Source of the DNA: a virus
Lineage: Duplodnaviria > Heunggongvirae > Uroviricota > Caudoviricetes
IMG/VR virus record: IMGVR_UViG_3300031992_000008
Location: 1 to 64,000 of that record
Reading direction: 5' to 3' (one strand)
DNA length: 64,000 bases
Below, in pieces: positions 2,284 through 56,311 of this stretch. Under the pieces are notes generated by a model, which had not been told where the DNA came from, made no database searches, and was given only the letters and a program-made list of their open reading frames with translations. Made by a program: the position numbers and the translations under genes. Positions within the stretch are counted from its first letter, which is position 1. Every line of letters begins with the position of its first letter.

Positions 2284-2480
2284 AGAACTAATAAATGGCG
2301 ATGTTACTGGATGCTTGCCAGTAAGCTCAACTAAGATAGAATGGTTCGCTCCTCCACGGAAAGAAGGTCGTTACGTGAGAGGAATCAGCGGGGCCGCAAG
2401 GGATCCACATGGCCTTCTTAGTGGAAACCCAGAATCTCAAGATATGCGCCTTGAGACTATTTTATCTTTGTTTTAATTTT
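2284..2480 (+). ncRNA. GC-rich structured non-coding region (candidate ncRNA or structured 3' UTR)
   Basis: About 200 nt with no ORF in any frame; GC well above flanks; several stable stems (ttactgg/ccagtaa, aagaagg/ccttctt, ctcaag/cttgag). Confidence 0.3.
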
Positions 2481-2511
2481 AGGTCTACCCGAAGGTAGGC
2501 CTTTTATTTTT
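2481..2511 (+). terminator. intrinsic terminator (8-bp stem, CGAA tetraloop, T-run)
   Basis: aggtctaccCGAAggtaggcct then TTTTATTTTT. Confidence 0.65.
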
Positions 2512-2547
2512 GATTTGTATATTATAGAATAGACAATCTTAACCATG
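2512..2547 (+). promoter_or_regulatory. early-class promoter box (GTATATTATAGAATAGACAATCTTAACC)
   Basis: Motif conservation; SD and ATG follow. Confidence 0.6.
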
Positions 2548-2552
2548 GAGTA

Positions 2553-3047
2553 ATGATGGACTACAAAAAGACTGAGGAATGCTATAAAGATATAAATGAG
2601 AGAATTAGTAGCCTGACAAGACTGATAGAAGCTAAAAATGACGAGCTAGCAGAATTAAAACAAGTTCTGAAGATGGAACTAAACAAAGAAAAACTGAAAG
2701 AATACCAAGACTGGAAGTTTGACAATAGATGGTTTGCCGAACTCGATCTTATTAACAAAGACCAAGAGACAGGTAAGATTTACTTCTATCATATAGAAAA
2801 AGCTTCAAAACCTGTGGTAGACGAGCGTGGAAATCCATTTGTTGATGCTAAAATTGATATAGAAATTGTCATAGAAACATATCCGAATAGAGACAAGACT
2901 ATCCGAGAAATGTTCAATGACAGTAAGCGGTTAAAATTGCGGCGTATAAAAGAAATTCCGGGAATGGTTGTGAGGGCCAAGGTAGAAGCTGCTCTTAATA
3001 CTCTAGCAACACGACTTAATATGTTCTTAGGCCCAGATGAGGGATAA
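2553..3047 (+). CDS. hypothetical early protein with coiled-coil N-terminus (164 aa)
   Basis: Single-gene operon between terminator 2481-2511 / promoter box and terminator 3057-3086. Confidence 0.65.
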   Translation: MMDYKKTEECYKDINERISSLTRLIEAKNDELAELKQVLKMELNKEKLKEYQDWKFDNRWFAELDLINKDQETGKIYFYHIEKASKPVVDERGNPFVDAKIDIEIVIETYPNRDKTIREMFNDSKRLKLRRIKEIPGMVVRAKVEAALNTLATRLNMFLGPDEG

Positions 3048-3056
3048 CCAAACTAT

Positions 3057-3086
3057 AAGGCATTTCTATAATGCCTTTCTTTTTTG
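3057..3086 (+). terminator. intrinsic terminator
   Basis: aaggcat ttctata atgcctt then TCTTTTTT. Confidence 0.65.
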
Positions 3087-3120
3087 GTTAGTATATTATA
3101 GTATGTACATTAAACCTTAA
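3083..3120 (+). promoter_or_regulatory. early-class promoter box (GTATATTATAGTATGTACATTAAACC)
   Basis: Motif conservation. Confidence 0.55.
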
Positions 3121-3128
3121 GGAGACCT

Positions 3129-3671
3129 ATGTACACTATTAGTAGATTTATCGACGACATAGAAAAAGCTCTCTATCCCTATCATCTCGGAGAGTTCAAA
3201 GTACATGAAGAAAAGAACAGCTGCGGATACCTAGAAGGATCTACAGATCTTAAGAAAGTTTCGTATATATGGTATGGCAAAGAGATTGCCAATATTATCC
3301 TTGACACTGACTTAGGTACGACTATCGTACATGCTAGAAAAAGTCTCGTTAAAGACGATTTGCATATTATTCATCCTTTCTTCTTGAAGAGATATGTAAG
3401 AAAGTGCATGAAGTATGAACTCAAGTGGATCAAAGGTAGAAACAAGATCTGGGATATCTTTGATGACATCCACAGACCAAGACTAGACATGAATATTCCC
3501 TATAAAGAGAATAAGGAGATTGTGCTATCTCGAATTGCAGAGAAGTGCTTTGAAGAATATGCACAAAATGGTGAGCAACTAGGAATCTTCCTGAAAAAGA
3601 TTGCGAAATATGTTGCCCCGAATTGGACAGTAGACATCAATGTTACAACTAACCCTAAAGAGGATCAATAG
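3129..3671 (+). CDS. hypothetical protein (180 aa)
   Basis: AAGGAG SD; first gene of operon after promoter box at 3091. Confidence 0.65.
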   Translation: MYTISRFIDDIEKALYPYHLGEFKVHEEKNSCGYLEGSTDLKKVSYIWYGKEIANIILDTDLGTTIVHARKSLVKDDLHIIHPFFLKRYVRKCMKYELKWIKGRNKIWDIFDDIHRPRLDMNIPYKENKEIVLSRIAEKCFEEYAQNGEQLGIFLKKIAKYVAPNWTVDINVTTNPKEDQ

Positions 3672-4394
3672 ATGCTTAAAGCAATTAAGAAATTTTTGAC
3701 TAAATTGTTCGGTGTTGATAATCACATTGACACCACCTTGGCAAATAGCCTAAAGCCTACACGTACTCCGTTAGAAAATCGTCTTTCTATCGAGGCTGAA
3801 GAGCTTGGAATTCTCATAGATTACCTTGTAAAAGTTCGTGAATCGCTCAATTACGAGAGTGTTATCAATGCAGCTGATATCAAGATAACTTCTCAAGAAG
3901 TCCTTAGAGCTGCAGAACATGCCAAAACATTAGCGTATCTTGTTAAGGCTACCAAAGACAAAGGCTTTGACGAGATCAAAGAACGTTTTATCAGGGCAAT
4001 AGAGAATGCCGGAAAGAACGGTTACTACAGTGCAGTAGTATTCTTTAATTGTTGTATCGGCGTCATAGACAAGGAATTTTATCTGCATAATAGTATTTTT
4101 AATGTAAATGATTACTATACGAATCTCATTCAAGCCGTTAATATATACGTTACCATTAAAGACCTACAGAAAAAAGGTTTCAAATTTAGAAGAACTGGAT
4201 ATGACTTTATTATCTCTACTGATGAAACAGTAGTAGATGAGCTTAAGATAGAGCCTAAGCTTCTTCATGTCTATAAGTCTTCAGAAGACATTGAGCCTTT
4301 ACTGAAGGATTATGAAGTAAACGCAAAGAAGCTCTACGATGAATTCCCTGAGCTCTTTGGCCCCGAGCTTAAACAAATATTCAATTTTAACTAA
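3672..4394 (+). CDS. hypothetical protein (240 aa)
   Basis: ATG immediately after upstream TAG. Confidence 0.65.
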   Translation: MLKAIKKFLTKLFGVDNHIDTTLANSLKPTRTPLENRLSIEAEELGILIDYLVKVRESLNYESVINAADIKITSQEVLRAAEHAKTLAYLVKATKDKGFDEIKERFIRAIENAGKNGYYSAVVFFNCCIGVIDKEFYLHNSIFNVNDYYTNLIQAVNIYVTIKDLQKKGFKFRRTGYDFIISTDETVVDELKIEPKLLHVYKSSEDIEPLLKDYEVNAKKLYDEFPELFGPELKQIFNFN

Positions 4395-4403
4395 GGATTT
4401 TCT

Positions 4404-4841
4404 ATGACAAAAACAAAAATAAAAGAATTAGCCGATGAGACTGCATACTTGATTCTAGATACTCTTATTGCATATCCACTTAGCAGTGAAAGTCAAAGAT
4501 GCGATGGAGAAGGATACCCATATTACGGCAGAGGAACTCCAATAGTGCTATCTGATGCTGATGAATTGGAAAAATTTAAGAGCGAATGTTTTTCCGTTAT
4601 TGGGGAGAACGTATTTAATTCTCTTACTGTCGCTAAGCCTGGTAGCCAAAGTATTTATAATGGTTGCATTGAAGATTATTGTAGTAAACAACTCAACAAA
4701 GCATTATACAATATTTTAAAGGATAGACCTAAGGATATTTACCAATTACTTAGAAATAATCTAGATGCAGCTGATTATTCTGGATTTGACTTTATGGAAA
4801 TTTTAGATGATCTTAAGAAGACATTCAGTATAGAACCTTAG
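4404..4841 (+). CDS. hypothetical protein (145 aa)
   Basis: ORF with AAGGA SD. Confidence 0.6.
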   Translation: MTKTKIKELADETAYLILDTLIAYPLSSESQRCDGEGYPYYGRGTPIVLSDADELEKFKSECFSVIGENVFNSLTVAKPGSQSIYNGCIEDYCSKQLNKALYNILKDRPKDIYQLLRNNLDAADYSGFDFMEILDDLKKTFSIEP

Positions 4842-4868: not shown

Positions 4869-5369
4869 ATGATGCCGAATTTCTTTAAATTAGTGCTCGA
4901 CGTATACTCAGAATGTTTGAGGCATGTTTGGGCATGGACAAAAATACTACTGATCGGGCTTGCAGTTCTGCTGCCCGGTCTTATTTGCCTAATATACATG
5001 TTCGCTACTAATACTCCAGATATAGGGATCATCCCAAGTATTATAGTGATCTGGCTGATAGTTCTATGGGCTCCGATCCCATTAAGGCCCTTCTTTTACA
5101 AAGACAAGGCGTTATTAGAAATGTACACTCAATACTTGATTCATGTAGCTGCAGCCATTTGTTTGGTTATCGCAGTCATCATCTATTTAGGGTGGATGTT
5201 TCTTCCAATACTCATAGAAGTAGCCATATGCACTATAGGAGATCGAAATCCTATGCCTCTTGAGGGGCTATTGATCTTGATAGGGAACCTTATATGGGGG
5301 CCAGTAGCTTACTGTATGTTTAACATGCTTTTAGAGAAGATATACAAGAATGACAAAAAGGAGTCATAA
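4869..5369 (+). CDS. polytopic membrane protein (166 aa, about 4 TM helices)
   Basis: Hydrophobic segments; AGGAG SD; conserved 5' UTR hairpin motif upstream. Confidence 0.6.
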   Translation: MMPNFFKLVLDVYSECLRHVWAWTKILLIGLAVLLPGLICLIYMFATNTPDIGIIPSIIVIWLIVLWAPIPLRPFFYKDKALLEMYTQYLIHVAAAICLVIAVIIYLGWMFLPILIEVAICTIGDRNPMPLEGLLILIGNLIWGPVAYCMFNMLLEKIYKNDKKES

Positions 5370-5815
5370 TGAAAGACCTCTATATGTTCGGTGTGAACAT
5401 TGCAAAAGCCGACAGCCATAATAAAGTCTATTGCGAAGTACTCAAAGCTATAAAAGCAGGTATACAATCTGGAAAGAAGAGCCTTAGGATCGTCTGTACA
5501 GCTATATCTGATTCTAGAATAGCTACTGGGCCTTGGCCTATTCCTATTAAGATTGGAGACCACCCTGATGACCAAAGCGTCGGAGTGGTTTTCAATACAG
5601 GTTTCTATGATCTTTCTACTGTAACCGTTGAAGAACGAATGTCGTTCATGAAGGGCGCAATGGAAAAATTTGGGAAATTAGCCTTATACTATCTATACAA
5701 CATAGTCTTTCAAGTTATGTGTGAAGCCAATCATTATTATATCATCGCAGACCTAAACTACAAGTTCAGACTAAAATTCGATTTCGAAAGGAGAAACAAA
5801 AATGAACCCATCTGA
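5369..5815 (+). CDS. hypothetical protein (148 aa)
   Basis: AAGGAG SD; TAATG overlap with upstream gene. Confidence 0.55.
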   Translation: MKDLYMFGVNIAKADSHNKVYCEVLKAIKAGIQSGKKSLRIVCTAISDSRIATGPWPIPIKIGDHPDDQSVGVVFNTGFYDLSTVTVEERMSFMKGAMEKFGKLALYYLYNIVFQVMCEANHYYIIADLNYKFRLKFDFERRNKNEPI

Positions 5816-7154: not shown

Positions 7155-8186
7155 ATGCATACATACCGCATTACAACATCAGATTCTCTGCTAGAAATAG
7201 GAGAATATCGAGACATCGGTCACGATGAACTTGTAGACTACGATAGAGTAAGATGCCTCAATGAAAGTGTAGCTAAAAACTGCGCTAATGCCATTTCAGA
7301 CTTTTGTAAAAAACATAAGGGAATTCAATTCAAACCTGCAGATATCACAAAAGTTATTAGGGAAAATAGTGGCATACAATGCACAAGCCTAATGCGTTTT
7401 CTCGGAACACTCGAACAGTCGTCCGAGCAAAAAGAACTTTTGGGCAAGTTCACCAAAAAATGTCCTAAGAACGTTACCTCTGAAAAAGGAGATACAATGT
7501 CAGAAGCATACAAGATCCAAAAAGTCGATGAAAGCGACATCAAGATCGAGCATCTTGAAGATAACGAAGTCATTGGCGAATGGACTCTTACTATCCCTAC
7601 GGCATCTGTGCGCAACAAGTGCTTCGATTTGCTGATGGATATCTATGTGAATCACGAAAATTCGCTTGATATCGTCTGTCTCGAAGCGCTCGAAACTGCG
7701 GTCAACAATGCAGATGTTCGAAAGGAATATGACGTAATGGTAAAAGAACTCATTGACCAAGGAGTTCTCCCCGCATGCTTTGATATCAAGAAGAAAATCA
7801 AGGCTCGTAACAAACTCACAACAACAACCTTAAAGGAAGAATCCACCATGGATATCAAAGAAATAATTAAACTAAAGATGATGACCAAGATCCTCAACAA
7901 GAAGGGTGAAATTGATGTCAAGCAACTGATGATGATTCAGATGCTCTCCAACGACGAAGGCTTTGAAATTACCGATGTCATCAAGACAAAGCTCATGGCA
8001 AGCCTCTTCGACGGTAAGGCCGATCTTGACAACATGACCACTGAACAGCTCATGGTCTATGGTATGCTTCAGAACGGTGAATTCGATATCCAGAAGCTCA
8101 TCGAAATCAAGTTCATGAGCAAGATTCTCGACGAAGACGACGAAGAAGTTGAAGACGACAAGGACAAGGCAGCTGAACGTAAGTAA
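7155..8186 (+). CDS. hypothetical protein (343 aa) with about 4 internal C-terminal repeats
   Basis: AGGAG SD; repeated K(L/F)M..(I/L)...D....L.. units in residues 238-330; last gene before terminator 8212-8242. Confidence 0.65.
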   Translation: MHTYRITTSDSLLEIGEYRDIGHDELVDYDRVRCLNESVAKNCANAISDFCKKHKGIQFKPADITKVIRENSGIQCTSLMRFLGTLEQSSEQKELLGKFTKKCPKNVTSEKGDTMSEAYKIQKVDESDIKIEHLEDNEVIGEWTLTIPTASVRNKCFDLLMDIYVNHENSLDIVCLEALETAVNNADVRKEYDVMVKELIDQGVLPACFDIKKKIKARNKLTTTTLKEESTMDIKEIIKLKMMTKILNKKGEIDVKQLMMIQMLSNDEGFEITDVIKTKLMASLFDGKADLDNMTTEQLMVYGMLQNGEFDIQKLIEIKFMSKILDEDDEEVEDDKDKAAERK

Positions 8187-12783: not shown

Positions 12784-12828
12784 CGTCTGAAAAGTAAAGT
12801 CTCATCTACCAAACAAGGAACCGTTGCG

Positions 12829-12859
12829 AATGCAGCGGTTTCTTTTTTATATTAAGAAA
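12829..12859 (+). terminator. intrinsic terminator
   Basis: aaccgttgc gaat gcagcggtt then TCTTTTTT. Confidence 0.6.
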
Positions 12860-12901: not shown

Positions 12902-13243
12902 ATGAAACCTTTAAAGTTCATTAGACTACAAAGAGTACTCATAAATAACTTTGACAAGTTCATTCCTGTCATCGAAATACAAGAAGGTGGATGCGCTTGG
13001 GACTTTCCTCCTCCGTACTTTTTAGCATACCCTAAACACATGGAATTATACTGCGGTGTAGGAATGAAACCTGCTCTGAAGTGTATTTCGGCAGAACAAA
13101 CATGTGTTCAGGGCTACATTGAGTATTGGAGAACAGAATATCTCGATAAGATTCCCTTTATGAATAGTATCGACGAATTCGTTAGGCGTTTCCCAGATTC
13201 ATACCGCAAGTATGTTGAATTTCCCGGAGAAAAAGATGGCTGA
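12902..13243 (+). CDS. hypothetical protein (113 aa)
   Basis: First ORF after promoter-like TTATATTAAGAAAC. Confidence 0.55.
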   Translation: MKPLKFIRLQRVLINNFDKFIPVIEIQEGGCAWDFPPPYFLAYPKHMELYCGVGMKPALKCISAEQTCVQGYIEYWRTEYLDKIPFMNSIDEFVRRFPDSYRKYVEFPGEKDG

Positions 13244-13622
13244 TAGTGGAATGACAGAAGACAAAAAAGAGGAGCCTTTCAAAGCTCCTCATCTCGATAC
13301 AGACATTGAAGAAATCGAGGAAGTCTGTAAATATAAGGACTTCCGTGGCAGCGAACAGGAATGCAAGATTATCTTTAAGCCTAACGATTGCGAAATGGCA
13401 TCAAGAAATCTGGCAACACTAGTGCAGCCTATTACCGGTATCTATATATCTGATAAGGAAAAAGTCAGAAGTATGATCAACAGAATGCTTGGCGAAGAAC
13501 ACAAATGTTGCTTTGGAATAAGCGTAGAGCCAAGATGTGATTTAAGATTTACTGACTGTGAAGCTGTAATTGGAAAAATGATTACCGAATTCTTGGAGGC
13601 ATTGCATGAAAGTAAGAGTTAA
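13236..13622 (+). CDS. hypothetical protein (128 aa)
   Basis: GGAGAAAAAG SD before ATG 13236. Confidence 0.5.
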   Translation: MADSGMTEDKKEEPFKAPHLDTDIEEIEEVCKYKDFRGSEQECKIIFKPNDCEMASRNLATLVQPITGIYISDKEKVRSMINRMLGEEHKCCFGISVEPRCDLRFTDCEAVIGKMITEFLEALHESKS

Positions 13623-13857
13623 AAAAAGTACGGATACAATAGTATCAAAACTTGAAGGTGTCGGAATAGACGATAATTCTGTATGTATCTTCATCAGATG
13701 GTATAATGAAAATTTTATTCCAGTAAGTGACGTAGACAAATTAGAGTATTTGTGCAACGGAAAATGGAAAGAAATAGAACTCTGGGAGAATGAAGACACT
13801 CCACGTAAACCAGAAGAAATCTATAATGAACTCGAAAAACTCTTCCTAAAAGGATAA
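13606..13857 (+). CDS. hypothetical protein (83 aa)
   Basis: GGAGG SD. Confidence 0.5.
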   Translation: MKVRVKKSTDTIVSKLEGVGIDDNSVCIFIRWYNENFIPVSDVDKLEYLCNGKWKEIELWENEDTPRKPEEIYNELEKLFLKG

Positions 13858-13861
13858 AACA

Positions 13862-14428
13862 ATGGTCAAAACAGCCGAACATAATAGAATGACATTTGAG
13901 GTCGTTCAATATACTGGAAAGAACTATGATGAATGTACTGCATTCATCGACAGTAATGGTATGTGGCCTCATATAGACGAGGATGCATCTTTTAGAATTC
14001 CTCCTAATAAAGCCATCGCAACCATGCGAACCAATGTCTTCCCCGGTGATTTTATCATCAAGGATGTATCTGGCTTGTTCATGAAGGATTGCTTCTATGC
14101 TACCTCTAAAGGAGCGTTTGAACTGTTCTTCAGACTGAAAGAATCAGAAAATGAAGTCCATGACTTTGGTTGGGCTCTTCGTCAGCTCAAGGCTGGAGAA
14201 AAGGTTCAGCGCAAAGGTTGGAATAGTAAGGGTATGTTCATTACCCTTCAGCCTGGATCCACAGTGAAGGGTGAACTCATGCGTAACGAACCTGCAAAGG
14301 AATTCTATAGCGGCAAACATTGTGTTATCATGTCTCATATAGATATGAAAGCGGCTGACGATTCCTACACAGTTGGTTGGAATGCAAGCCAAATTGACAT
14401 GCTAGCAGAAGACTGGCAGTTAGCTTAA
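13862..14428 (+). CDS. DUF2829 (Tad2-like anti-Thoeris sponge fold) fused to a about 100-aa N-terminal domain
   Basis: C-terminal FGWALRQLKAGEKVQRKGWNSKGMFITLQ...HIDMKAADDSY.VGWNASQIDMLAEDWQLA matches the DUF2829 signature (..KVRRKGWNGKGM...MKTADG...W.ASQTDMLAEDW..). Confidence 0.7.
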   Translation: MVKTAEHNRMTFEVVQYTGKNYDECTAFIDSNGMWPHIDEDASFRIPPNKAIATMRTNVFPGDFIIKDVSGLFMKDCFYATSKGAFELFFRLKESENEVHDFGWALRQLKAGEKVQRKGWNSKGMFITLQPGSTVKGELMRNEPAKEFYSGKHCVIMSHIDMKAADDSYTVGWNASQIDMLAEDWQLA

Positions 14429-14580
14429 CCATAATAAGGAAACTATGAAGGACGATCTTTATAAGGACATGCTTCCGAAATTAGATGGACTGGGAGATAA
14501 TCGTATCTCCCAGAATTCTTTTCCCGGAAGTACGTTCCTGAACCTACATTTCGACTATCATTCAAAGCTAAAGGAGCTCA

Positions 14581-15120
14581 ATGGAAACGGTAACACCAGA
14601 GAACATTGACGACTTTGTTGATAAGGCTATCAATGCTTGTTACGATAGGGCGAATCGAGCATTAGTCGATATAGCCAACAGACCAAGAGAAGTTCCGAAA
14701 CCAGAACCAAAACCGGAACCTAAACCAAAGCCTAAGCCAAAGCCTAAAGAATCTGAGGAGGATCCAGAAAGAATTCACGATAAGGATTTTAGAATCCTAG
14801 CGAAGAAGTATGGATTCGATATTAGAACCGAAGGCCCAGATGATGATGATGCACTGTACGCATATGATGCAATACATCCTACGGCTAATGACTGGTTCCT
14901 GAATGTAGCTATGCTTAAATCCAGTGGTGTAGCAATCGTTGGACGCAAGTATACTACAGAATCACGTAACAAAGGAATGGTCTTCAATATAATCGGTACG
15001 ACAGAATGTACTACTGTCAAAGAACTGGAAGAAGCCATCTGCACCATTGCCAAAAGTAGAGACGAATTCTTCAAACCTAAATCTACTAAGCGTAGTCAGA
15101 ACAGATCTCGTACTTGGTAA
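14581..15120 (+). CDS. hypothetical protein with (PK/PE)n linker
   Basis: AAGGAG SD; PKPEPKPEPKPKPKPKPKE repeat. Confidence 0.55.
   Translation: METVTPENIDDFVDKAINACYDRANRALVDIANRPREVPKPEPKPEPKPKPKPKPKESEEDPERIHDKDFRILAKKYGFDIRTEGPDDDDALYAYDAIHPTANDWFLNVAMLKSSGVAIVGRKYTTESRNKGMVFNIIGTTECTTVKELEEAICTIAKSRDEFFKPKSTKRSQNRSRTW
14696..14752 (+). repeat. coding low-complexity repeat (CCNAAR)n encoding (PK/PE)n
   Basis: Direct repetition in sequence. Confidence 0.7.
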
Positions 15121-15151: not shown

Positions 15152-16747
15152 ATGGAAATCAATGCACTTACTATCAGTGCCATTGCAGTGGGAGCTCTCC
15201 TGCTGCTCCTCGCCTTCATTTTCATTATTGGATACGTTAAAGCTCCGCCTGATACCGCATATGTCATTTCCGGTATCCGTAAACAGCCTCGCTTCCTCAT
15301 TGGTCGAGCTGGTGTTCGTATTCCGTTCTTGGAACAGAAGGACGAGCTTGTACTCAAGGCTATTCAAGTCGATGTAAATACGTCCGATGAAATTCCCACA
15401 GCGGATTTCATCAATATTACTGTCGATGCAAACGTCAACGTACAAGTTGATACTGAACTAGAAAAGAAAGAAGAAGAACGTTCTGGATTGCTTCAGAAAG
15501 CCGCTAGAAACTTCCTCAATCTTAAGGAAAAAGACATCATGGCAATGGTTCGACCAGTTCTTGAAGGTAATGTTCGAGAAATCGTTGGCAAGATGAATCT
15601 CAAAGCTATGGTGAATGATCGCCAGAAATTCTCTACTCTGGTTTCTGAAAACGTGCAGCCTGACCTTGCTGCCATGGGCTTAAAGCTCGTGTCTTTTAAT
15701 GTGCAGAACTTTAAGGACAAGGAAGGCACTATTAGGAACATGGGTATCGACAATATTGAAGCAATCCGTAAGGATGCTGAAATCGCAAAGTCAAATGCCC
15801 AGAGAGATATTCGCATTGCTAAGGCTGAAGCTGACAATGAAGCCAGCATTGCAGAAGTAAAGTCTAAAACTGCAGTCGCCGAACGTGAGACTGATCTTGC
15901 TATCAAGAAGGCAGACCTCAAGAAGAAGTCTGATATCCAAGAAGCAATCGCCGATGCTGCTAAGGGCATCGAAGCCGCTAATCAGCAGAAAACCTTGAAT
16001 ATCACGGAAGCCGAAGCTGAAACTGCAAAGCAGATGAAGCTCATCGAAGTCCGTCAGGAAGAAGCTAATGTTACCGAAAAGGAACTTGTTGCCAAGGTGA
16101 TTCGTCCGGCTGAAGCTGCAAAGCAAGCCACTATCATTAAGGCTGAAGGTGAACAGAAGGCTAAGCTCATTGCTGCTGAAACCAACCTTGAAACCACCAA
16201 GAAGAATGCTGATGCTGAAAAGTATCAGCGTGAACGTGAAGCTGAAGTCAAGCTGTTCAATGAACAGAAGGATGCGGAGGCCGAGCGCTACAAACAAGAG
16301 CAAAACGCCGAAGGTGTCAAGGCTATGGCTGACGCTGACCTTAAGACTGCTCTTGCTAAGGCTCAAGGTGTTGAAGCTAACGGTAAGGCTGAAGCTGCTG
16401 CTATCGAAGCTAAGGGTCTCGCCGAAGCCGAAGCCAAGGACAAGATGGCTGATGCTATGGCTAAGTTTGGCGATGCCGCTAAGCAAGACCTTACTCTTGA
16501 AACCGTTAAGGCGTTTGTTGCTGTTCTTCCGGAAGTTGCTGGTAACATTACCAAGCACTTCGAGAAGGTTGGTAACTACACTATCTACGGTGAAGGTGGC
16601 GGTGCTAAGCTGGTTGGTGATGCAACTCAGGCAATGTCTCAGATTATTGCATCCGTCAAGGAAGCAACTGGTCTTGATGCCGCAGGTATCTTGAACAGCT
16701 TCCTTGGTAGCCGTACTGCACTCGCAGTAGCTGACAAGAAAGAGTAA
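15152..16747 (+). CDS. flotillin (SPFH/band-7 domain, FloT/YuaG-like), 531 aa
   Basis: N-terminal TM helix then YVKAPPDTAYVISG SPFH start; VSFNVQNFKDKEGT..IAKAEADNEA..KGLAEAEAKDKMADAMAKFG aligns almost residue-for-residue with B. subtilis FloT; EA-rich coiled coil. Confidence 0.9.
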   Translation: MEINALTISAIAVGALLLLLAFIFIIGYVKAPPDTAYVISGIRKQPRFLIGRAGVRIPFLEQKDELVLKAIQVDVNTSDEIPTADFINITVDANVNVQVDTELEKKEEERSGLLQKAARNFLNLKEKDIMAMVRPVLEGNVREIVGKMNLKAMVNDRQKFSTLVSENVQPDLAAMGLKLVSFNVQNFKDKEGTIRNMGIDNIEAIRKDAEIAKSNAQRDIRIAKAEADNEASIAEVKSKTAVAERETDLAIKKADLKKKSDIQEAIADAAKGIEAANQQKTLNITEAEAETAKQMKLIEVRQEEANVTEKELVAKVIRPAEAAKQATIIKAEGEQKAKLIAAETNLETTKKNADAEKYQREREAEVKLFNEQKDAEAERYKQEQNAEGVKAMADADLKTALAKAQGVEANGKAEAAAIEAKGLAEAEAKDKMADAMAKFGDAAKQDLTLETVKAFVAVLPEVAGNITKHFEKVGNYTIYGEGGGAKLVGDATQAMSQIIASVKEATGLDAAGILNSFLGSRTALAVADKKE

Positions 16748-16781
16748 AACTAAAAGATTTTACCCATAAAACCTCGATGGG

Positions 16782-16816
16782 GAGAGGCTCTAGAAATAGA
16801 GTCTCTCTTTTTTTCG
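16782..16816 (+). terminator. intrinsic terminator after flotillin gene
   Basis: gagaggctct agaaat agagtctctc then TTTTTTT. Confidence 0.7.
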
Positions 16817-35677: not shown

Positions 35678-37648
35678 ATGAACTTGAAACTTTCCGAAAT
35701 GGTAGCCCGAAAAGTTTCATATCAATTAACTAAAAATACTAGCTTCCTTAAGATACACCAATTCCTTAAGGAAAAAGGAATCAAGAACAATAAGTTCTTT
35801 CTAGCATTATATGATAAAGATCTAGAGAATATAGACCCTAGGGCTGCTAACCTTCCTAAAAAAATTAAAGCTAAGATTATTACAGAATGCAGAGTGAATC
35901 CTTGGTACTTCTTCAGAGAAGTCGTAAGAATCCCTGTGCCGGGTGGTGACATCCCCTACGAACTCCACCGTGGTAACTTAGCTCTGAACTACCTGTCGTT
36001 GAACAATATCGATACCATTGTCTTAATGCCTCGTCAGCATGGTAAGACTATTGGCGCTGTGGTATTGTTCGTATGGCTTTTCTTTTTTGGTACTAAGAAT
36101 ACTACTGTAACCTTTATGAACAAGAAGTATTCTGATGCTCAGGTTAACCTCAAGAGATTCAAGAATATTGTTGAATTGCTACCCAAGTGGATGGTCGAAG
36201 CTAGAAGCCCGAGAGAAGACCAAGAATCTTCTACGACTTTCTCAAGAATGACCAGATTGAAGAATGTTATCACGGCTATGCCAGCTGCTACCTCTCCTGA
36301 AGATGCTGATAAGCTTGGTCGTGGTCTTACGATGCCTTGTTGGTACTTTGACGAAATTGCGTTCGCCAAGTATAATGAAATCATCTATACGGCTGCTGCT
36401 CCGGCTGTGTCTCAGGCTGCTATCGAAGCTGAAAAGACTGGTGTGCCTCACTTCAAGCTGTTCACTACAACGCCTAACTCTATCGACGTAGATGAAGGTG
36501 GATGGTGCAAACATGAAGTCATTGAAGCTGCTTGCGAATTTGATGAAGAGATGTACGATGTTCCTTCCAATCTTCTCAGACAATATGTCTATGATAGATC
36601 CACCAATAACTTTGTGCATATCGAATTTACTTGGAAGGAACTTGGAAGAGATGAGAAGTGGTATGAACAACAGTGTAGAGACCTTCAGTACAATAGACAG
36701 AGAATCAAGCGTGAAGTTGACCTTGAATGGACTCTTTCGGCTGATAAGTCTCCATTCTCTGAAGAAGAACTTGAAAGAGTATCGCATTTCGTTATCCCCA
36801 AGGAAAAGGAATATACCCTTAGAATTGGTGATAGCGGAAACCATAAGCTTACCGTGTTAGAGAATGTAGACTTCTTTAAACCAGTAATACTTGCAGTTGA
36901 CGTTGGCGGTGGACAGGGATCTGACTTCTCTGTTGTCCACATGCTTGATATCGACGATTTCCACGAAATAGGTTATTTTGCTTCTAATAGAATTAACCCA
37001 ATCCCGTTCGCAAGGATTATTATAAGTATAGTGAGGAATCTGTTCTCTAACTCTGTTCTCATAGTGGAAAGAAACAGCTATGGCCTTGATGTCATAACTA
37101 CGCTACTTGAGAATGACTTTACTAGAAACAAGGTATTCTATCGTACTATCAATAATCCGATTCCGAACCAAGGTAACAAGATTCAAAGGGTATATGGTAT
37201 CGATACTACTTCTGGCTCTAGAGATATCATGATCTCTAATTGCTTCATGTATGTAGCTGACGAGCCTCACCTATTTAGATGCAGACATACTTATAATGAA
37301 CTCAAGACTATCGAAAGAAAGAATAACGGCAAGGTAGAACATGCTCAAGGAGCACACGATGACTTCTTGATGTCGTATCTAATCGGTCGTTATGGAGCTT
37401 CATTTGAGAGCTTTAAGATGTTCAAGAGAAGAGTATGTGCTTCGTCTCTTAGGGAACGTAAGGATGTAGCTAGATCGGAAGAGAAAAATACTGTGGTCAT
37501 AGAAACGACTAGAAGTATTGAAGACTACCTTGATAGGGGTGACTCTAAAATGAGGAGAGTCTTTTCTCTCAATTTCGATAATAAGCCGAACTTATCAATG
37601 AAAACTGCAAAACAAGGATTTGACATATGGGGAAATACCAAGACATAG
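35678..37648 (+). CDS. terL: terminase large subunit
   Basis: Walker A LMPRQHGKT, Walker B CWYFDEIAF, RNaseH-like nuclease Asp block AVDVGGGQGSDFSVVHMLD; AAGGAG SD. Confidence 0.85.
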   Translation: MNLKLSEMVARKVSYQLTKNTSFLKIHQFLKEKGIKNNKFFLALYDKDLENIDPRAANLPKKIKAKIITECRVNPWYFFREVVRIPVPGGDIPYELHRGNLALNYLSLNNIDTIVLMPRQHGKTIGAVVLFVWLFFFGTKNTTVTFMNKKYSDAQVNLKRFKNIVELLPKWMVEARSPREDQESSTTFSRMTRLKNVITAMPAATSPEDADKLGRGLTMPCWYFDEIAFAKYNEIIYTAAAPAVSQAAIEAEKTGVPHFKLFTTTPNSIDVDEGGWCKHEVIEAACEFDEEMYDVPSNLLRQYVYDRSTNNFVHIEFTWKELGRDEKWYEQQCRDLQYNRQRIKREVDLEWTLSADKSPFSEEELERVSHFVIPKEKEYTLRIGDSGNHKLTVLENVDFFKPVILAVDVGGGQGSDFSVVHMLDIDDFHEIGYFASNRINPIPFARIIISIVRNLFSNSVLIVERNSYGLDVITTLLENDFTRNKVFYRTINNPIPNQGNKIQRVYGIDTTSGSRDIMISNCFMYVADEPHLFRCRHTYNELKTIERKNNGKVEHAQGAHDDFLMSYLIGRYGASFESFKMFKRRVCASSLRERKDVARSEEKNTVVIETTRSIEDYLDRGDSKMRRVFSLNFDNKPNLSMKTAKQGFDIWGNTKT

Positions 37649-40668: not shown

Positions 40669-43600
40669 ATGGCTGCAGATTCTCTACCGAAATATATGCA
40701 CCCGCATTCGAGTGCACGTATTATCGATAATGCCGTTCTGACTGTCTCGTCTAGCGGCTTGACCAATATGTTCATTGCCCTTGAAGCTGAAAAAGGTATG
40801 CCGAATGAAGCCACCTATATCACTACCCAGAGTGAGTGGATTTTCAACTTTGGCGAACCCAACTACAGCAAGTATGGACAAGGAGCATTGAACGCTCTTA
40901 ACTACATCAACGCAGGTGGTGGTGCATGGGTGATCCGTGTTGTGCCTGATGATGAAAGATTCGCTTCGCTCTCTCTTGGCATCGGCTATCGTGCAAACCA
41001 GCCCTTTACCAATGATGAAGAGAAGTACAGACGTCTTGAAATGACTTCTGAACAGATTAAGTTGTGGAATGCTGCCCAGACTGATGATACCCTCAAGTAT
41101 GCAATCGATAAGAAGTCTGGCAACTTTGCTATTCTTCCGTTGTTCTACATCGAAGAAAATGGCAACATCAACGCTGCTTTGAAGCTCCAGACTCTTGACG
41201 AAATTGAATCTTACAAGCTCAAGAACACTGATGCTAGCAAGACCATCAATGCCGTTGCTAAGAAGAATGTGATTACCTATTCTAATCCGTTCATCGAAGT
41301 CTCCGGTGTCTTTGATCCTGAAAACGAAGAACTGAGATTCCTCGCAGACAGAGCTTATACCGAATTCGTTGAAGGTCAGGAAATCGGTGGTATTGAATTC
41401 GGCAATGTTGCTGAAGAAAACTGCAAGGCCTATATCCGTATCGATAAGTACTTTGCTACTGATGCAAATGATGACACGATCAAGGATAAGACTGGCAGTG
41501 TCAAGACTTTTGACTACTATGATGCCGCTTACAAGGCTGCTCAGTCCAGCAATCAGAATGCTGAAGAAAGCGATGGTTCTGGTGAATTCGATCCGGCTGA
41601 TCATGTGTTTGCGTTCTCTGGTACGATCCGTATCTATTCCGAAGCTGCCGATGGACAGCCGTTTGGCGAAGTGATCTATGATGTGCTCGCAGCTATTTTC
41701 GGTACCGATGCACAGACCGTAACAAAGGGTAAGGCAGAATTCAATACTGAACTCAATGGCGACGCTAGCTTCTCTGATGATATTCAGAAGGGTAAGAAGC
41801 ATACTGCTAAGTGGCTTCAGGAAAACCGTAATGAATACTCCAACGCTAGAACTGTCTACAAGAAAGTCAAGCCTAGCGAATTCTTCGGTAGCGCCAATAC
41901 GATCGTTAATACCAAGATTCTTCTGAATATTGGTACTCCCGATTCTCAGACTTGGGATTACTCCTTCGAAGTTTACAAGGAAAGTCTGCCCGGTCAGTAC
42001 ATTCCTGTCGCATCTTCTCTCATTGACAACAGCACTGCCTTTACGGAAGTAGAGCTCACTGAATGGAATGCCCTGCATGGTACATTCTATAAGCTCGGCG
42101 GTAAGGCTGATCCTGAAAGCGATTTTGAAGATGTCGTTGACAGCACTCAGCAGAAGATTGTTAACAAAGAACCGTCTACGGGTGCTACCAAGAACTCCAC
42201 GCTTTACTATGTGAAGTATGTGACGACTGGTGAACCTGTCTACTCGACCTCTATTACTGAATCTGAAGCTTACAGATTCAACAGAGTTAAGGCTACATCT
42301 GAAGATGAAACCGTGACCTTGTCTACTCCGGCTGAATTCCCGGCTTCTGCTATGAACACCAAGTATGCAAGCCTCTTGAATACTAAGGTGTCCTTCAGCT
42401 CCGATGTTTCTAAGGAAGGTCACTGGGAAGCTACTGTTCCTGAAGGCGCTACCCTGACGGATGCAGTTGACTTCATCAACTTCTTCTTCAGCGCTCCTTC
42501 GATGATTGAAACTAAGGACAACTCTAACGCTGGTGAATTCCTCGTTAACGTTTCCTTCAGCGAAAATGCTTACATCGGTGAAAGCGAATATGTGTCTATC
42601 AAGGGTACTGCTCTTGGAAACCTCTTCAAGCGTGCTGACGATGGTGCTATTCAGGACAATAACAATGAAAATGTGACGGATGATACCAATGAAGGTATCT
42701 CTGGTACTTCTACTGGCGAATCTGACGAACCGAAGTACATTCTTCGTACTGACATCAAGCCGTCCGAAGTTCCTAGCACTGTTGCTAAGTTCATTGTCAA
42801 CGGTAGCTTCCAGCCTGTCGAAATCGACAACATTCCGGCATCTGCTCTTCTCTGCTTGCTTGCTGATAAGACCAACAGAGAAAATGGTACTGCTGAACTC
42901 AAGACCGATCTTGGCGAAAATTTCGAATTCGAATATGCCAATACTTGTGTCTTGCTGGCTGGAATCGATTCTGTTGCTGGTTTCAATGGCACGATTACGC
43001 TTGCTTTTGTTTCTGACTCTATCGAAAACTTGGCTATCAAGGCTTATGACGAAGCTGTTAGCGGTGGTGAAACCTCCATTACGGCTACTCAGATCCCCGG
43101 TGAAAAGGTTCCGTACGTCAGATACTCTGACAACTTTGATGGTTCTATCTTTGAACCTAACTATGACTACATTGAACGTATCTATGATACCGTTGGTCTC
43201 GTGACTACGACTTACACGGCCTTCGATTATCCTGAAAATGCCAACTACTTCCCGTACAATATCCAAGATGGTGTAAAGGTGAAGACCCCGGAAATCTGGG
43301 CTGGCATTGAAAGTGCTAAGGAAGGCTACTCTGTCGCTGCTGCTAGAGACGAAATCAAGGATGTTGATCTTCAGGATCTCAAGCTCGATAAGACTTGCTT
43401 TGCTGAATTCTGCCGCTTCTTGCCCAAGGGCTCTGGTAAGTGGTACAACAGACTCGGTGTGTCGCTCTCCTACGATGACAACTTCGACGGTACCTATCCT
43501 GATTGGAGTATGTTCAAGCTCACTGTGTTCGAAAGAAGTAACGGTGAAGAGATCTCTCGTGAACAGTTCGCTGTCTCGTTGGATCCTGATGCTGTGTCCG

Positions 43601-44937
43601 CTACTAAGGAAAGTCTCTTCATTGAAGACGTCGTTAACACCTACTCGTCTTACCTGACTTGTGTGGTGAACTATGATAACCTCCGCAACTTCATTGAAAC
43701 GAAGTTTGCTGTGGTTGACGACAACAACAAGCCCGTCAAGGATGAAGATGACAATGAAATCTTCGTTAGCGTTGATACCGTCATCAAGTACATCTTCGGA
43801 CGCATCGATCTCGATGATTTCAATAAGAGAACGTTCGGCGATGACTATCAGGTTAACACCCTCAGCAAGTATGCATTTACTTCGTTGATGAGCGTTAACG
43901 GCGTGGATGAAGATGGCTGTGCCTTCGACACCTCTCGCTACAACAGTGATAGTCTCTATGAATACACTGAACCCTTCAATTCGTTCTGGTTCTTCACGAC
44001 TGTTTCCTCTGCTGCTTCGCTCTACTTGGGCGGTGGCTCCTATGGTAACGGTTGGGGCTATGAATACGAAGACGAAGAGGGTAATCCGCAGCATACTAGC
44101 ACGCTGACTCAGGCTCTCGTAAGAGCATACAGTGGTGTAACTGATCCGTTCATCACTAACACGAACCTCTGTGAATTCGACCTCATGTTCGATGCTAACT
44201 ACGAAACTGACGTTCGTACTGCTATGACGAAGCTGGCCTCTGAAACTCGTCAGGACTGTATCGCACTCCTTGACCAAGGCTTGTCTATCGCCAATGCTAC
44301 ACAGGCTATCGATAAGAGAAAGAACGAAGAAAACTTCGACACCTTCTATGCTTCCATCTTTACGCAGCATCTTGTTGTGAACGATGTGTGGTCTGGTAAG
44401 GTCATCAAGGTTACTCCGACATTCTTCCTTGCTTCGAAGATTCCTGCTAACGATACTGCTAACGGCAAGACTATGAACTTCGTTGGCCCCCGTCGTGGTA
44501 CTATCGGTGGATTCCGTTCTATTTCGTTCATGCCTACAGCTTACGAAATGAGCGAACTCTACAAGGCTCAGGTGAACTACATCGAACGTGACGCTCTTGG
44601 TGTGTTCTTTGCTACTGAACTCACGTCTCAGACTAAGAATACTCCGTTGACCCTTATCCATGCTGTTCGCGCTATCTTGGCTCTGAAGAGAGACTTCCTC
44701 AAGATCAGCCGTAACTACCGTAGCGAATATGCTACTGGTGCTGTTCAGGCTAACTTGCTGGGCGAACTCAACGCTTGTGCTGCCGAATACATCCTTCAGG
44801 GTGCGTTCAAGTACATCACGCCTAAGATTGCCTCTACGGACTACGATGTCCAGCAGAGAATCTGCCGCATTGATGTGTCTGTGGCCTTCGTTGACATCAT
44901 GGAAAGATTCGTCTTCTCCTTCGTTGTTGAACGCTAA
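40669..44937 (+). CDS. giant acidic virion structural protein (1422 aa), likely tail-associated
   Basis: Strong AAGGAGG SD; class-2 promoter element upstream; terminator downstream; followed by baseplate spike gene. Confidence 0.8.
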   Translation: MAADSLPKYMHPHSSARIIDNAVLTVSSSGLTNMFIALEAEKGMPNEATYITTQSEWIFNFGEPNYSKYGQGALNALNYINAGGGAWVIRVVPDDERFASLSLGIGYRANQPFTNDEEKYRRLEMTSEQIKLWNAAQTDDTLKYAIDKKSGNFAILPLFYIEENGNINAALKLQTLDEIESYKLKNTDASKTINAVAKKNVITYSNPFIEVSGVFDPENEELRFLADRAYTEFVEGQEIGGIEFGNVAEENCKAYIRIDKYFATDANDDTIKDKTGSVKTFDYYDAAYKAAQSSNQNAEESDGSGEFDPADHVFAFSGTIRIYSEAADGQPFGEVIYDVLAAIFGTDAQTVTKGKAEFNTELNGDASFSDDIQKGKKHTAKWLQENRNEYSNARTVYKKVKPSEFFGSANTIVNTKILLNIGTPDSQTWDYSFEVYKESLPGQYIPVASSLIDNSTAFTEVELTEWNALHGTFYKLGGKADPESDFEDVVDSTQQKIVNKEPSTGATKNSTLYYVKYVTTGEPVYSTSITESEAYRFNRVKATSEDETVTLSTPAEFPASAMNTKYASLLNTKVSFSSDVSKEGHWEATVPEGATLTDAVDFINFFFSAPSMIETKDNSNAGEFLVNVSFSENAYIGESEYVSIKGTALGNLFKRADDGAIQDNNNENVTDDTNEGISGTSTGESDEPKYILRTDIKPSEVPSTVAKFIVNGSFQPVEIDNIPASALLCLLADKTNRENGTAELKTDLGENFEFEYANTCVLLAGIDSVAGFNGTITLAFVSDSIENLAIKAYDEAVSGGETSITATQIPGEKVPYVRYSDNFDGSIFEPNYDYIERIYDTVGLVTTTYTAFDYPENANYFPYNIQDGVKVKTPEIWAGIESAKEGYSVAAARDEIKDVDLQDLKLDKTCFAEFCRFLPKGSGKWYNRLGVSLSYDDNFDGTYPDWSMFKLTVFERSNGEEISREQFAVSLDPDAVSATKESLFIEDVVNTYSSYLTCVVNYDNLRNFIETKFAVVDDNNKPVKDEDDNEIFVSVDTVIKYIFGRIDLDDFNKRTFGDDYQVNTLSKYAFTSLMSVNGVDEDGCAFDTSRYNSDSLYEYTEPFNSFWFFTTVSSAASLYLGGGSYGNGWGYEYEDEEGNPQHTSTLTQALVRAYSGVTDPFITNTNLCEFDLMFDANYETDVRTAMTKLASETRQDCIALLDQGLSIANATQAIDKRKNEENFDTFYASIFTQHLVVNDVWSGKVIKVTPTFFLASKIPANDTANGKTMNFVGPRRGTIGGFRSISFMPTAYEMSELYKAQVNYIERDALGVFFATELTSQTKNTPLTLIHAVRAILALKRDFLKISRNYRSEYATGAVQANLLGELNACAAEYILQGAFKYITPKIASTDYDVQQRICRIDVSVAFVDIMERFVFSFVVER

Positions 44938-44945
44938 AGTAAATA

Positions 44946-44984
44946 GAATTCCTGTATCCAAAAGATACAGGAATTTTATATTTT
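44946..44984 (+). terminator. intrinsic terminator after giant structural gene
   Basis: aattcctgtatc caaaa gatacaggaatt then TTATATTTT. Confidence 0.65.
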
Positions 44985-45010
44985 GAACTTTCAAATAGTA
45001 AGGAGTTACT

Positions 45011-51840: not shown

Positions 51841-51907
51841 ACCTAGAAAAAAAAATAAAATTCTGTATCAATAAATATTGGTAACTAATTATTGCAAGGA
51901 GTTTATT

Positions 51908-53350
51908 ATGAAACTAATAGTAGAACCATTCAGACTGATTCTCAGAGATGCCAACGAAAGACTGTTGAAATTTCTAAGATCCAAGCTGGCCATTTATGAT
52001 AACTACTGCAAATGGCCTAAGATTCTTTGGACTGCCATTCTAGAAAGAACTAATGGCGACCTTTTGCTCCCTAGATTTATTCCTAGAAAATATATCTTCG
52101 GCGATAATCTCATTGTAGAGAGAAACAACGAAACGGAATACGCAGAAGATGTTATCCGTATTAACATGGATGCTAGCCCTAAGAATGATCTCCAGAGAGA
52201 CGCATTGGCTTATCTATTCGATGATCTCAACAGATTCAGAGAGAATGTCAGGGTTCTAGACTTACCTACAGGAGCTGGAAAGACTTTCTTAGCTTTGTGT
52301 GCTATTTCTAGGCTCGGAGTGAAGGCCTGTATTTTCGTTCATAAGATCACTATGATTGAAACTCCTTGGATTAAAGATATCTTGAACTTTACCGATATCA
52401 GACGAGATGAAATCTGTGTAATTCAGGGTTCAGATAGTATCAAGAGAGCATACAAAAACAAGGATAAATACAAGATCTTTATATGTGTACACAAGACTTT
52501 TGAAACCATTGCCATGAAGAGCGATGGTGAGGAAGTCATTAGAACAATGTATAAAAATCTTGGAATCGGACTGAACATCATTGATGAAGCCCATAGAGAA
52601 TTACTCGACGTGTTCTATATCAACATGTTCTCTCCGTGTAAAAGAGCTCTCTATCTTACTGCTACACTTGGGCGTGTGGACTATAAGGAAAATGAAATCT
52701 TTAGATACATCGTTCCTGTCACTGACACGTTTAGAAGCAATGTATATATTGCCGATAACAAAATCATAACATACTGTCCTAGACCTTTTAGTACCACAGT
52801 CGATGAAGTTTGGGAAAAGAAGTTCCATAACATAGTCGGTATCAAGCTATCTGTATACTGTGATTATATCATGGCTAACGAAGATATTCGTTGTATGCTC
52901 TACGATGGCATCAAAACCGCTATAGATGAAATCCTAAAGGTCAATCCAGAAGGACAGATAACTATTCTTCTTGGAACACTCGAACTCGTACAATGGATCT
53001 ATGATGGTCTAGCTATAGATTATCCTGAGATTGAAATCGGGAACTTCACTTCCTTGATAGCTCCTAAGAAGCGCATCAATGAACTTAATAAGAAGATCAT
53101 TCTATCTACAGAAAAGTCTATGGACAGCGCAACCGACTGCAACGTTGATAATCTCATTATGACTGTTCCAGTAACGAATGATATTCAGCTGACACAGATT
53201 ATTGGTCGTATCAGAAACAAGGATAATCATCCTGCTCCATACTTTGTTTATGATATCTTTGATACATCTTTGCCTAAAATGTTAAAGAACTTCAATACTC
53301 GAAAGAAGATTATCACTGAGCATTTGGCTAAAGAAGTAAAGAAGGCATAG
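51908..53350 (+). CDS. SF2 DEAH-box helicase
   Basis: Motif I LPTGAGKT, motif II IIDEAHREL, motif VI QIIGRIRN; AAGGAG SD before ATG 51908. Confidence 0.75.
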   Translation: MKLIVEPFRLILRDANERLLKFLRSKLAIYDNYCKWPKILWTAILERTNGDLLLPRFIPRKYIFGDNLIVERNNETEYAEDVIRINMDASPKNDLQRDALAYLFDDLNRFRENVRVLDLPTGAGKTFLALCAISRLGVKACIFVHKITMIETPWIKDILNFTDIRRDEICVIQGSDSIKRAYKNKDKYKIFICVHKTFETIAMKSDGEEVIRTMYKNLGIGLNIIDEAHRELLDVFYINMFSPCKRALYLTATLGRVDYKENEIFRYIVPVTDTFRSNVYIADNKIITYCPRPFSTTVDEVWEKKFHNIVGIKLSVYCDYIMANEDIRCMLYDGIKTAIDEILKVNPEGQITILLGTLELVQWIYDGLAIDYPEIEIGNFTSLIAPKKRINELNKKIILSTEKSMDSATDCNVDNLIMTVPVTNDIQLTQIIGRIRNKDNHPAPYFVYDIFDTSLPKMLKNFNTRKKIITEHLAKEVKKA

Positions 53351-56256: not shown

Positions 56257-56298
56257 TAGGAGAATCTTGGAAAGTTTCTGGGATTCTCCTATTTTAAC
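56257..56298 (+). terminator. stem-loop upstream of RNAP beta fragment (terminator or attenuator)
   Basis: taggagaatc ...16 nt... gattctccta then TTTTAACC; weak T-run. Confidence 0.35.
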
Positions 56299-56311
56299 CA
56301 AAGGAAGATAC

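Follow-up and report, generated by a model that had tools for sequence, protein, structure and literature searches.

Fusion of a Tad2-like domain with a diverged member of a widespread phage protein family in a metagenomic phage genome

Does the gene at positions 13862..14428 (+ strand) of the phage record IMGVR_UViG_3300031992_000008 encode a sponge for host immune signals, and what is the domain that stands in front of its Tad2-like part? Sponges of the Tad2 family are a major route by which phages silence TIR/Thoeris and related nucleotide-signalling immunity. The window analysed here is the whole stretch from position 1 to position 64,000 of the record (64,000 nucleotides). The coding sequence in question, with an ATG start and a TAA stop, specifies a protein of 188 residues in which a PGDYG-like N-terminal domain (N-domain) precedes a Tad2-like C-terminal domain (C-domain). 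An earlier note, made from the letters alone, had described it as a two-domain variant of a Tad2-like protein with a novel N-terminal domain, lying within an anti-defence island. The two-domain reading stands, as both domains could be recognised; the other two claims fare less well and are taken up below.

The C-domain (residues 101-187, 14162..14422, + strand) is the sole Pfam match in the protein. It matches PF11195, 'Tad2-like' (formerly DUF2829), with an E-value of 9.5e-24 and a score of 84.2 bits against a cut-off of 25, and covers profile positions 2-72 of 73. The accession given for DUF2829 in the earlier note, PF10988, was wrong, the correct one being PF11195, but the strings it quoted are all present in the translation: KVQRKGWNSKGMFITLQ at residues 114-130, HIDMKAADDSY at 159-169 and WNASQIDMLAEDW at 173-185. 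Sequence matches in the PDB were to AcrIIA7 (9kzr, E 4e-14), HgmTad2 (8kbi, E 1e-13), SptTad2, ModTad2 and SPO1 Tad2 (8sme). An AlphaFold2 monomer model built from 74 homologues gave a predicted local distance difference test score (pLDDT) of 93-97 across the C-domain, and the modelled Tad2 fold, in which an N-terminal helix precedes an antiparallel sheet that carries an insertion, can be superposed on the solved Tad2 structures. The profile search and the comparison with Tad2 that had been proposed for this part of the protein thus both returned Tad2, and the DUF2829 assignment is borne out by the profile, by the predicted fold and by most of the ligand-contact residues.

Those residues were compared by aligning the protein to the SPO1 gp34.65 sequence taken from NC_011421. 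In SPO1 Tad2 the contacts to 1''-3' glycocyclic ADP-ribose (gcADPR) are W25, N26, I63, T65, D67, H71, W73, S76, T78 and D79 (bioRxiv 10.1101/2023.05.01.538930), and in HgmTad2 they are W21, N22, G23, M76, A78, T82, V84, W87, L88, S90, T92 and D93 (PMC10680739). Six of the ten SPO1 contacts are identical in the fusion protein (W120, N121, D166, W173, S176 and D179), and these six are kept in 66-73 of the 74 relatives. W120 and N121 correspond to W25/N26 of SPO1 and W21/N22 of HgmTad2, and lie in the stretch G119-W120-N121-S122-K123-G124 (14216..14233, + strand) that aligns with the beta1-beta2 loop covering the ligand in Tad2. The second half of the pocket aligns with G172-W173-N-A-S176-Q-I178-D179-MLAEDW185 (14375..14416, + strand). 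M162 and A164 match the HgmTad2 contacts M76 and A78. In HgmTad2, gcADPR binding was lowered by mutating five residues (W21A/N22A; S90A/T92A/D93A), and four of these are kept. The fifth, T92, is replaced by isoleucine, so that the ligand-binding residues to which the earlier note had tied its assignment are mostly present, with one exception. This position, the adenine-contacting threonine (T78 in SPO1, T92 in HgmTad2), is Ile178 here and Val178 in a 94 %-identical variant of the protein; among the 74 relatives it is T in 51, I in 8, V in 7, A in 4 and P in 2.

A second binding site, the one used by HgmTad2 for cGG and 3'3'-cGAMP, is backed by its mutants S47A, F70A and R31A/N85A (PMC10680739). 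Its residues are absent from the fusion protein, where R31 is Q130, S47 falls in a deletion, F70 is I156 and N85 is V171. Compared with the known sponges (SPO1 gp34.65, HgmTad2/meAcrIIA7, SptTad2 and ModTad2), the protein shares PF11195, the predicted order of helix alpha1 and then antiparallel sheet with insertion, the W-N loop and the W..S..D pocket helix, and like them it is encoded by a phage. It differs in the additional N-domain of about 95 residues, in Ile178 for the adenine threonine and Ser122 for Gly23, and in an insertion between beta2 and beta5 of another subtype (ITLQPGSTVKGELMRNEPAKEFY), which is shorter than that of HgmTad2 and lacks the cGG-binding residues. Judged from the alignment, the C-domain carries a pocket of the kind that sequesters ADP-ribose (ADPR) signals, with an intact core, an altered adenine side and no cyclic-dinucleotide site of the Hgm subtype.

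By analogy with the solved Tad2 proteins, we consider it rather likely that the gene encodes a counter-defence protein whose C-domain assembles into a tetramer of the Tad2 type and sequesters an ADPR-type signal derived from TIR proteins, with the N-domain as an outer accessory module. Four C-domains would make up the tetramer, and a second messenger of host immunity would be bound and sequestered in the pockets that form between protomers. The likeliest ligand would be an ADP-ribose-derived TIR/Thoeris signal, either 3' cyclic ADP-ribose (3'cADPR) or a related molecule, for example His-ADPR or N7-cADPR. With the signal sequestered, the host effector would stay off. The N-domain would decorate the exterior of the tetramer, and may be kept as a scaffold, as a partner-binder or with a changed ligand. 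That a multi-domain Tad2 can work is clear from the Acb4-Tad2 fusion, which blocks both Thoeris and CBASS (PMC12265669). The recurrence of the two-domain architecture, the purifying selection on both domains and the placement of relatives in early/replication regions of phages, all described below, also speak for this reading.

Several points weigh against this reading. With Ile178 in place of threonine, the one hydrogen bond that SPO1 and Hgm Tad2 make directly to adenine is lost, and in the phosphate-binding loop the usual glycine (G23 of HgmTad2) is Ser122, where the 94 %-identical variant has Gly122. Moreover, members of the Tad2 family bind 3'cADPR, His-ADPR, N7-cADPR, cUMP/cCMP or cyclic dinucleotides (PMC12393519), and a family of such functional plasticity does not allow specificity to be read from homology. 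Given the two substitutions and this plasticity, the ligand may differ from that of the solved Tad2s. In the related pdAcrIIA7 an N-terminal extension silenced RNA binding (PMC13133391), and N-terminal additions can therefore modulate a Tad2-fold tetramer. Finally, the N-domain has lost K-K-P, E57, G58, E75 and P78-C79-K80 of its family (numbering of the family member P0141), so no function can be assigned to it.

The same protein raises the question of an anti-CRISPR of the AcrIIA7 type, in which the positively charged groove of a Tad2-fold tetramer takes up tracrRNA, so that Cas9 loading is blocked. The best PDB sequence matches are AcrIIA7 entries (9kzr and 8kbi, at the E-values given above), pdAcrIIA7 (PDB 9kzr) likewise consists of a Tad2-fold core with an N-terminal extension, and its lysines K58, K66 and K71, without which it does not bind sgRNA (PMC13133391), have counterparts in K110, K118 and K123. 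However, these three lysines are conserved across the Tad2 family and do not discriminate, and K93 and R101 sit in a long insertion that is missing here. Full-length pdAcrIIA7 with its head neither bound RNA nor inhibited Cas9 in vitro (PMC13133391); that head comprises 48 residues forming two helices that auto-inhibit RNA binding, whereas the N-domain is larger, an alpha/beta domain of 95 residues from an unrelated family. Nor is a type II-A CRISPR context known for the host. An AcrIIA7-type activity is thus very improbable.

What, then, is the N-domain (residues 1-95, 13862..14146, + strand)? It gave no Pfam match even at E<=10, PF14083 included, and to that extent the earlier remark that it has no recognisable motif is right. 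However, it matches PHROG 419 at E 3.1e-4, and hhalign aligned residues 1-74 to 95 standalone family members with 96.8 % probability (E 2.7e-10). A match of the domain to the family was also found with hmmsearch (E 1.4e-6). It moreover contains P61-G62-D63-F64 (14042..14053, + strand), the eponymous PGD[YF] motif of the family, in which D63 is among the few family-invariant residues kept. The pLDDT of the N-domain is 48-87, and the order of its secondary-structure elements agrees with the family model. Between the two domains lies a short acidic linker, KESENEVHD (residues 92-100, 14135..14161, + strand), where pLDDT dips to ~74 and the alignment varies in length. About 25 metagenomic proteins of 182-192 residues share the whole architecture at 44-50 % identity, one of them (WP_304039085) annotated as Fibrobacter succinogenes. 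Their N-domains carry the conserved pattern KKPV.IE...W.G.N..EI..F ... TLEG ... GDYIIKGV.GEFYPCKPDIFEKTY and match PHROG 419 at E 2e-34. By profile comparison the N-domain is a divergent member of the SPO1 gp34.82-like family, a very large group of phage proteins of about 90 residues that PHROG 419 represents, and the claim of novelty does not hold.

A profile of 12 N-domains, searched against a collection of 5.8 billion proteins, put the size of the family at no less than 7,998 clusters at 90 % identity; the matches listed were mostly standalone proteins of 80-100 residues with no Pfam domain. In GenBank phages, tblastn found the family in 831 records, about 1.6 % of such records, from phages of Bacillus, Mycobacterium, Staphylococcus, Gordonia, Streptococcus, Acinetobacter and others, and all GenBank phage copies among the matches listed were hypothetical or unannotated. 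In SPO1 (NC_011421) the Tad2 gene gp34.65 (5222-5491) and the family member gp34.82 (7589-7867), downstream of it, lie 2.1 kb apart in one block of small genes. No Pfam model passed for the family and no solved structural relative was found, and a literature search for PGDYG, PF14083, gp34.82 and the YPCKPDIF motif returned no paper. The relationship to PF14083 'PGDYG' (gathering score 27 bits) is real but remote: the model gave only sub-threshold matches, in 41 of 95 family members (best E 0.0049). Structural neighbours of the family in BFVD are annotated "PGDYG protein", and P0214, whose sequence contains 19 bona fide PGDYG repeats, is matched by the two-domain profile with an E-value of 1.4e-57. 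P0214 itself has 3,743 residues and comes from a 1.13-Mb contig; it combines the 19 repeats with annexin and Zeta-toxin/AAA_33 domains, and the N-domain part of the profile matches 27 stretches of it.

Other known sponge families were considered for the N-domain and rejected. Acb4 gave neither a PF13876 match nor a PDB match, and in SPO1 it is gp1.3 while the family member is gp34.82. For Sequestin and Lockin there was no PF21825 match in the protein and no PDB match, and the N-termini of Lockin, translated from published primer sequences, look unrelated.

How far this copy has diverged can be read from the residues that are invariant in the family, namely (P0141 numbering) T55, E57, G58, D66, I69, G71, G74, E75, Y77, P78, C79, K80, F84 and Y88, with K5-K6-P7 near-invariant. 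The N-domain keeps T54, D63 (in P61-G-D-F64), I66, G71, F86 and probably Y79. In it K-K-P is replaced by H7-N8-R9, E-G by R56-T57, G by D68, E by L72 and P-C-K by A80-T81-S82, and it differs from PF14083, PHROG 419 and SPO1 gp34.82 in lacking the K-K-P, TLEG and GE.YPCKPDIF..TY motifs, as well as in a five-residue insertion at residues 73-77.

It is not, however, a decaying remnant. A variant of the protein with 94 % identity is encoded in a syntenic locus (L094) whose DNA is 90 % identical, and between this one pair of sequences residues 1-95 differ by 9 synonymous and 4 non-synonymous changes (ratio of non-synonymous to synonymous substitution rates, dN/dS, 0.10). For residues 96-188 the counts are 14 and 9 (dN/dS 0.13), and for the whole gene dN/dS is 0.12. 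As synonymous sites make up ~20 % of the N-domain, the neutral expectation is about 1:4 synonymous to non-synonymous. The pair therefore gives strong evidence of constraint on the N-domain. Both domains are under purifying selection, at dN/dS of about 0.1, and the constraint on the N-domain indicates that it is kept for some function. Given the residues it has lost, that function is probably not the ancestral activity of the family.

The fusion itself is no one-off. A profile of 15 full-length proteins gave 25,198 matches at E<=1e-3 among 1.84 billion representatives, and the best 150 of these were sorted by separate hidden Markov models for the N- and C-domain. There were 78 with N+C, 9 with an additional domain in front (X+N+C) and 9 with one in between (N+X+C), which places both domains together in at least 96 clusters at 50 % identity. 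The N-domain is joined to three insertion subtypes of Tad2. Other partners also occur: P0281 is PGDYG-like + Sequestin (PF21825) + Tad2-like, P0342 is PGDYG-like + Sequestin (PF21825) without Tad2, and P0272 and P0230 are PGDYG-like + WDGH (PF25311) + Tad2-like. Sequestin is a verified anti-Thoeris sponge that was found through its Pfam fusions to Tad2 and Acb4 (PMC12265669). That census of fusions was built on Pfam families, and a partner with no passing Pfam model would probably go unlisted in it.

Linkage is also seen in genomes. Among the best 80 Tad2-like loci of IMG/VR, three are fused to the N-domain (L014, L044 and L065) and a further three of the same gene layout (L020-L022) carry a weak standalone N-domain homologue ~1.9 kb away. 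Among the 71 loci drawn from species-representative genomes, fusions occur in two (Palleronia and Phaeospirillum), and in two a standalone copy lies no more than 1.5 kb away. Set against the family frequency of ~1.6 % in GenBank phage records, the linkage looks enriched by simple comparison. The partner of Tad2 is exchangeable even among close relatives: a related phage contig, L013, which has two further genes in common with the window, encodes a C-domain of 78 % identity preceded by a different N-terminal region (P0012). A standalone protein of 84 residues, P0090 (L004 882-1136), is 100 % identical to the N-domain of the fusion P0004 from another sample, which points to recent domain shuffling. 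P0090 was also considered as a split-gene ancestor and rejected, the gene downstream of it being unrelated to Tad2. Separately, Tad2-like domains have another recurrent N-terminal partner with the motif YIGTK...GY.V.Y.DGY.SWSPK..FE.AYR (P0049, P0062, P0069, P0313 and P0232); it has no Pfam name and sometimes co-occurs with the PGDYG-like domain.

Such recurrence suggests a further explanation, that the N-domain is itself a ligand-binding or anti-defence module and that one polypeptide neutralises two immune pathways. Its precedents are Acb4-Tad2 (Pasteurella phage Pm86) and Sequestin-Tad2 (PMC12265669), recurrent fusions that likewise pair a Tad2-like domain with a small, usually standalone phage module; here the second domain belongs neither to the Acb4 family (PF13876) nor to that of Sequestin (PF21825) but is a degenerate PGDYG-like copy. 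The breadth of the fusion across clusters and three Tad2 subtypes argues for this explanation, as do the joining of the N-domain to the verified sponge Sequestin, alone and in the triple fusion, and the fact that Sequestin was itself discovered by fusion to known sponges. The family is usually a standalone phage protein of ~90 residues, which fits the published profile of sponges (PMC12265669). It lies near Tad2 in SPO1, adjoins Tad2-like genes in L151, L160 and L020-22, and the copy studied here is under purifying selection. On the other side, K5, K6, E57, E75, C79 and K80 are replaced in this copy, so that the ancestral activity has probably been lost or changed. The family is also fused to QueE, a MazG-type pyrophosphohydrolase, an annotated nicotinate ribosyltransferase and WDGH, and partners so unrelated are as compatible with a general adaptor or regulatory function as with a sponge. 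For the present protein, two active inhibitory modules are rather unlikely.

The fusion partners bear equally on the idea that there is no defence role at all, and that the Tad2 fold has been re-used for a housekeeping ligand in a small-molecule-binding or regulatory factor of phage nucleotide or nicotinamide adenine dinucleotide (NAD) metabolism. PGDYG-like fusions to the PHROG 4159 pyrophosphohydrolase, to QueE and to the annotated nicotinate ribosyltransferase agree with this, as do the unusual pocket residues S122 and I178 and a standalone C-domain homologue in L005 that sits amid carbamoyltransferase-like, SSB (single-stranded DNA-binding protein), DNA polymerase, dUTPase and thymidylate synthase genes. 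However, all experimentally characterised PF11195 proteins found in a literature search counter a defence system, the core of the pocket is conserved, and the Sequestin fusions of relatives point to immune signals. A purely metabolic role is accordingly quite improbable, and a Tad2-type sponge with an accessory N-domain is still the reading that we prefer.

In L005 the C-domain homologue (67 % identity) lies between a carbamoyltransferase-like gene and SSB (2318-4702), with a dGTP diphosphohydrolase-like gene, DNA polymerase A, dUTPase and thymidylate synthase nearby. Arthrobacter phage Qui encodes at least six proteins with a PGDYG-like fold, and it is one of these that is annotated as nicotinate ribosyltransferase (BFVD). 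The joining of this fold to QueE is found in other viral proteins (BFVD), and its joining to a nucleotide pyrophosphohydrolase in PHROG 4159.

The fusion gene is real and not an artefact of assembly, since four further contigs, which come from three samples (SRR9006729, SRR9006730 and JGI 3300024342), encode the identical 188-residue protein, in addition to the syntenic 94 % variant. A frameshift is ruled out by the same independent contigs and by the dN/dS of about 0.1 of that variant. In GenBank phages the full protein gave tblastn matches in 208 records, none covering >=80 % of its length, and megablast of 11-18 kb of the window against them gave no match.

The gene is the last of four small co-oriented genes bracketed by + strand hairpins. 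The unit is preceded by a terminator-like hairpin with a 13 bp stem and a T-run (12815..12844, + strand). Three ORFan genes from the gene calls follow (12902-13243, about 13236-13622 and 13606-13857, all +), and the unit is ended by a terminator-like hairpin with a 10 bp stem (14490..14513, + strand), 62 nt past the stop of the fusion gene. The gene upstream ends at 13857, 4 nt ahead of the ATG, and a Shine-Dalgarno-like AGGA read from the sequence (13851..13854, + strand) lies 7 nt 5' of it; the overlap of this site with the end of the upstream gene suggests translational coupling inside the cassette. A second unit follows downstream, with a PK-repeat protein (14581-15120), a flotillin/SPFH protein (15152-16747) and a closing hairpin (16779-16810). 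An open reading frame (ORF) of 54 residues at 14445-14609 spans the hairpin at 14490-14513 and is called as a gene in L094; it may not be a real gene.

Do these neighbours form an anti-defence island? They are of uncertain function, as had been claimed, in that the small genes at 12902-13857 and 14581-15120 gave no Pfam, PHROG or PADLOC match. However, no known defence or anti-defence family was found among the neighbours with these three resources, and a scan of the 28 other ORFs of the first 26 kb returned only RusA, STIV_B116-like and PspA. The 83-residue upstream gene (13606-13857) is an ORFan with a single homologue in 5.8 billion proteins, at L094 403-654, where it is 73 % identical and the fusion gene 94 %. 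Its C-terminal part resembles the N-terminus of P0012 weakly (E 2e-4 pairwise), which is only suggestive. An island is therefore compatible with the data, but its support comes only from the Tad2-like gene itself, and the claim as first made goes too far.

As to the carrier, the window also encodes a large terminase, a ResIII/DEAD helicase and an RNA-polymerase beta-like protein (Rpb2 domain 6) besides the flotillin/SPFH protein, and genes of jumbo-phage type as a group lie at 15152-16747, 35678-37648, 51878-53350 and 56267-58204. One database record of the fusion protein is a 235-kb contig. With the terminase, the polymerase-like protein and the helicase, this makes the window look like part of a jumbo phage, and the gene looks to be carried by a large rumen phage. 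Relatives of the fusion are found on phage contigs of 55 kb and 157-242 kb, some of them with Fibrobacter-type paralogous-domain proteins (PF09603), and they occur in early/replication regions, adjoining SSB and RecT; they hint at Fibrobacter and other rumen bacteria as hosts. Elsewhere in the window, two long ORFs of almost equal length occupy opposite strands of one 4.3-kb region at 40669-44994: 40669..44937 (+, 1,422 residues), whose product gave no Pfam match, and 40684..44994 (-, 1,436 residues).

The Tad2 family and multi-domain sponges are already known, whereas no description was found of the PGDYG-like partner, which is also fused to Sequestin. The main value of this locus is thus the lead that it gives on the partner domain, an abundant companion of Tad2-like domains with no passing Pfam model and a candidate counter-defence module. 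It is possible, though doubtful, that the PGDYG-like, SPO1 gp34.82-like family is a new phage counter-defence family, acting as an immune-signal sponge or as an inhibitor of another system. For the protein studied here this is tempered by the divergence of its N-domain; were the family to act in counter-defence, the protein would be a dual inhibitor re-specialised within its lineage. Should the family lack such a role, the gene is an ordinary Tad2 homologue, well conserved and with an accessory domain. If the family has it, a function would be assigned to a very common phage "hypothetical protein", one that stands alone in hundreds of cultured phages, among them SPO1, mycobacteriophages and staphylococcal phages, and the catalogue of phage immune evasion would be widened.

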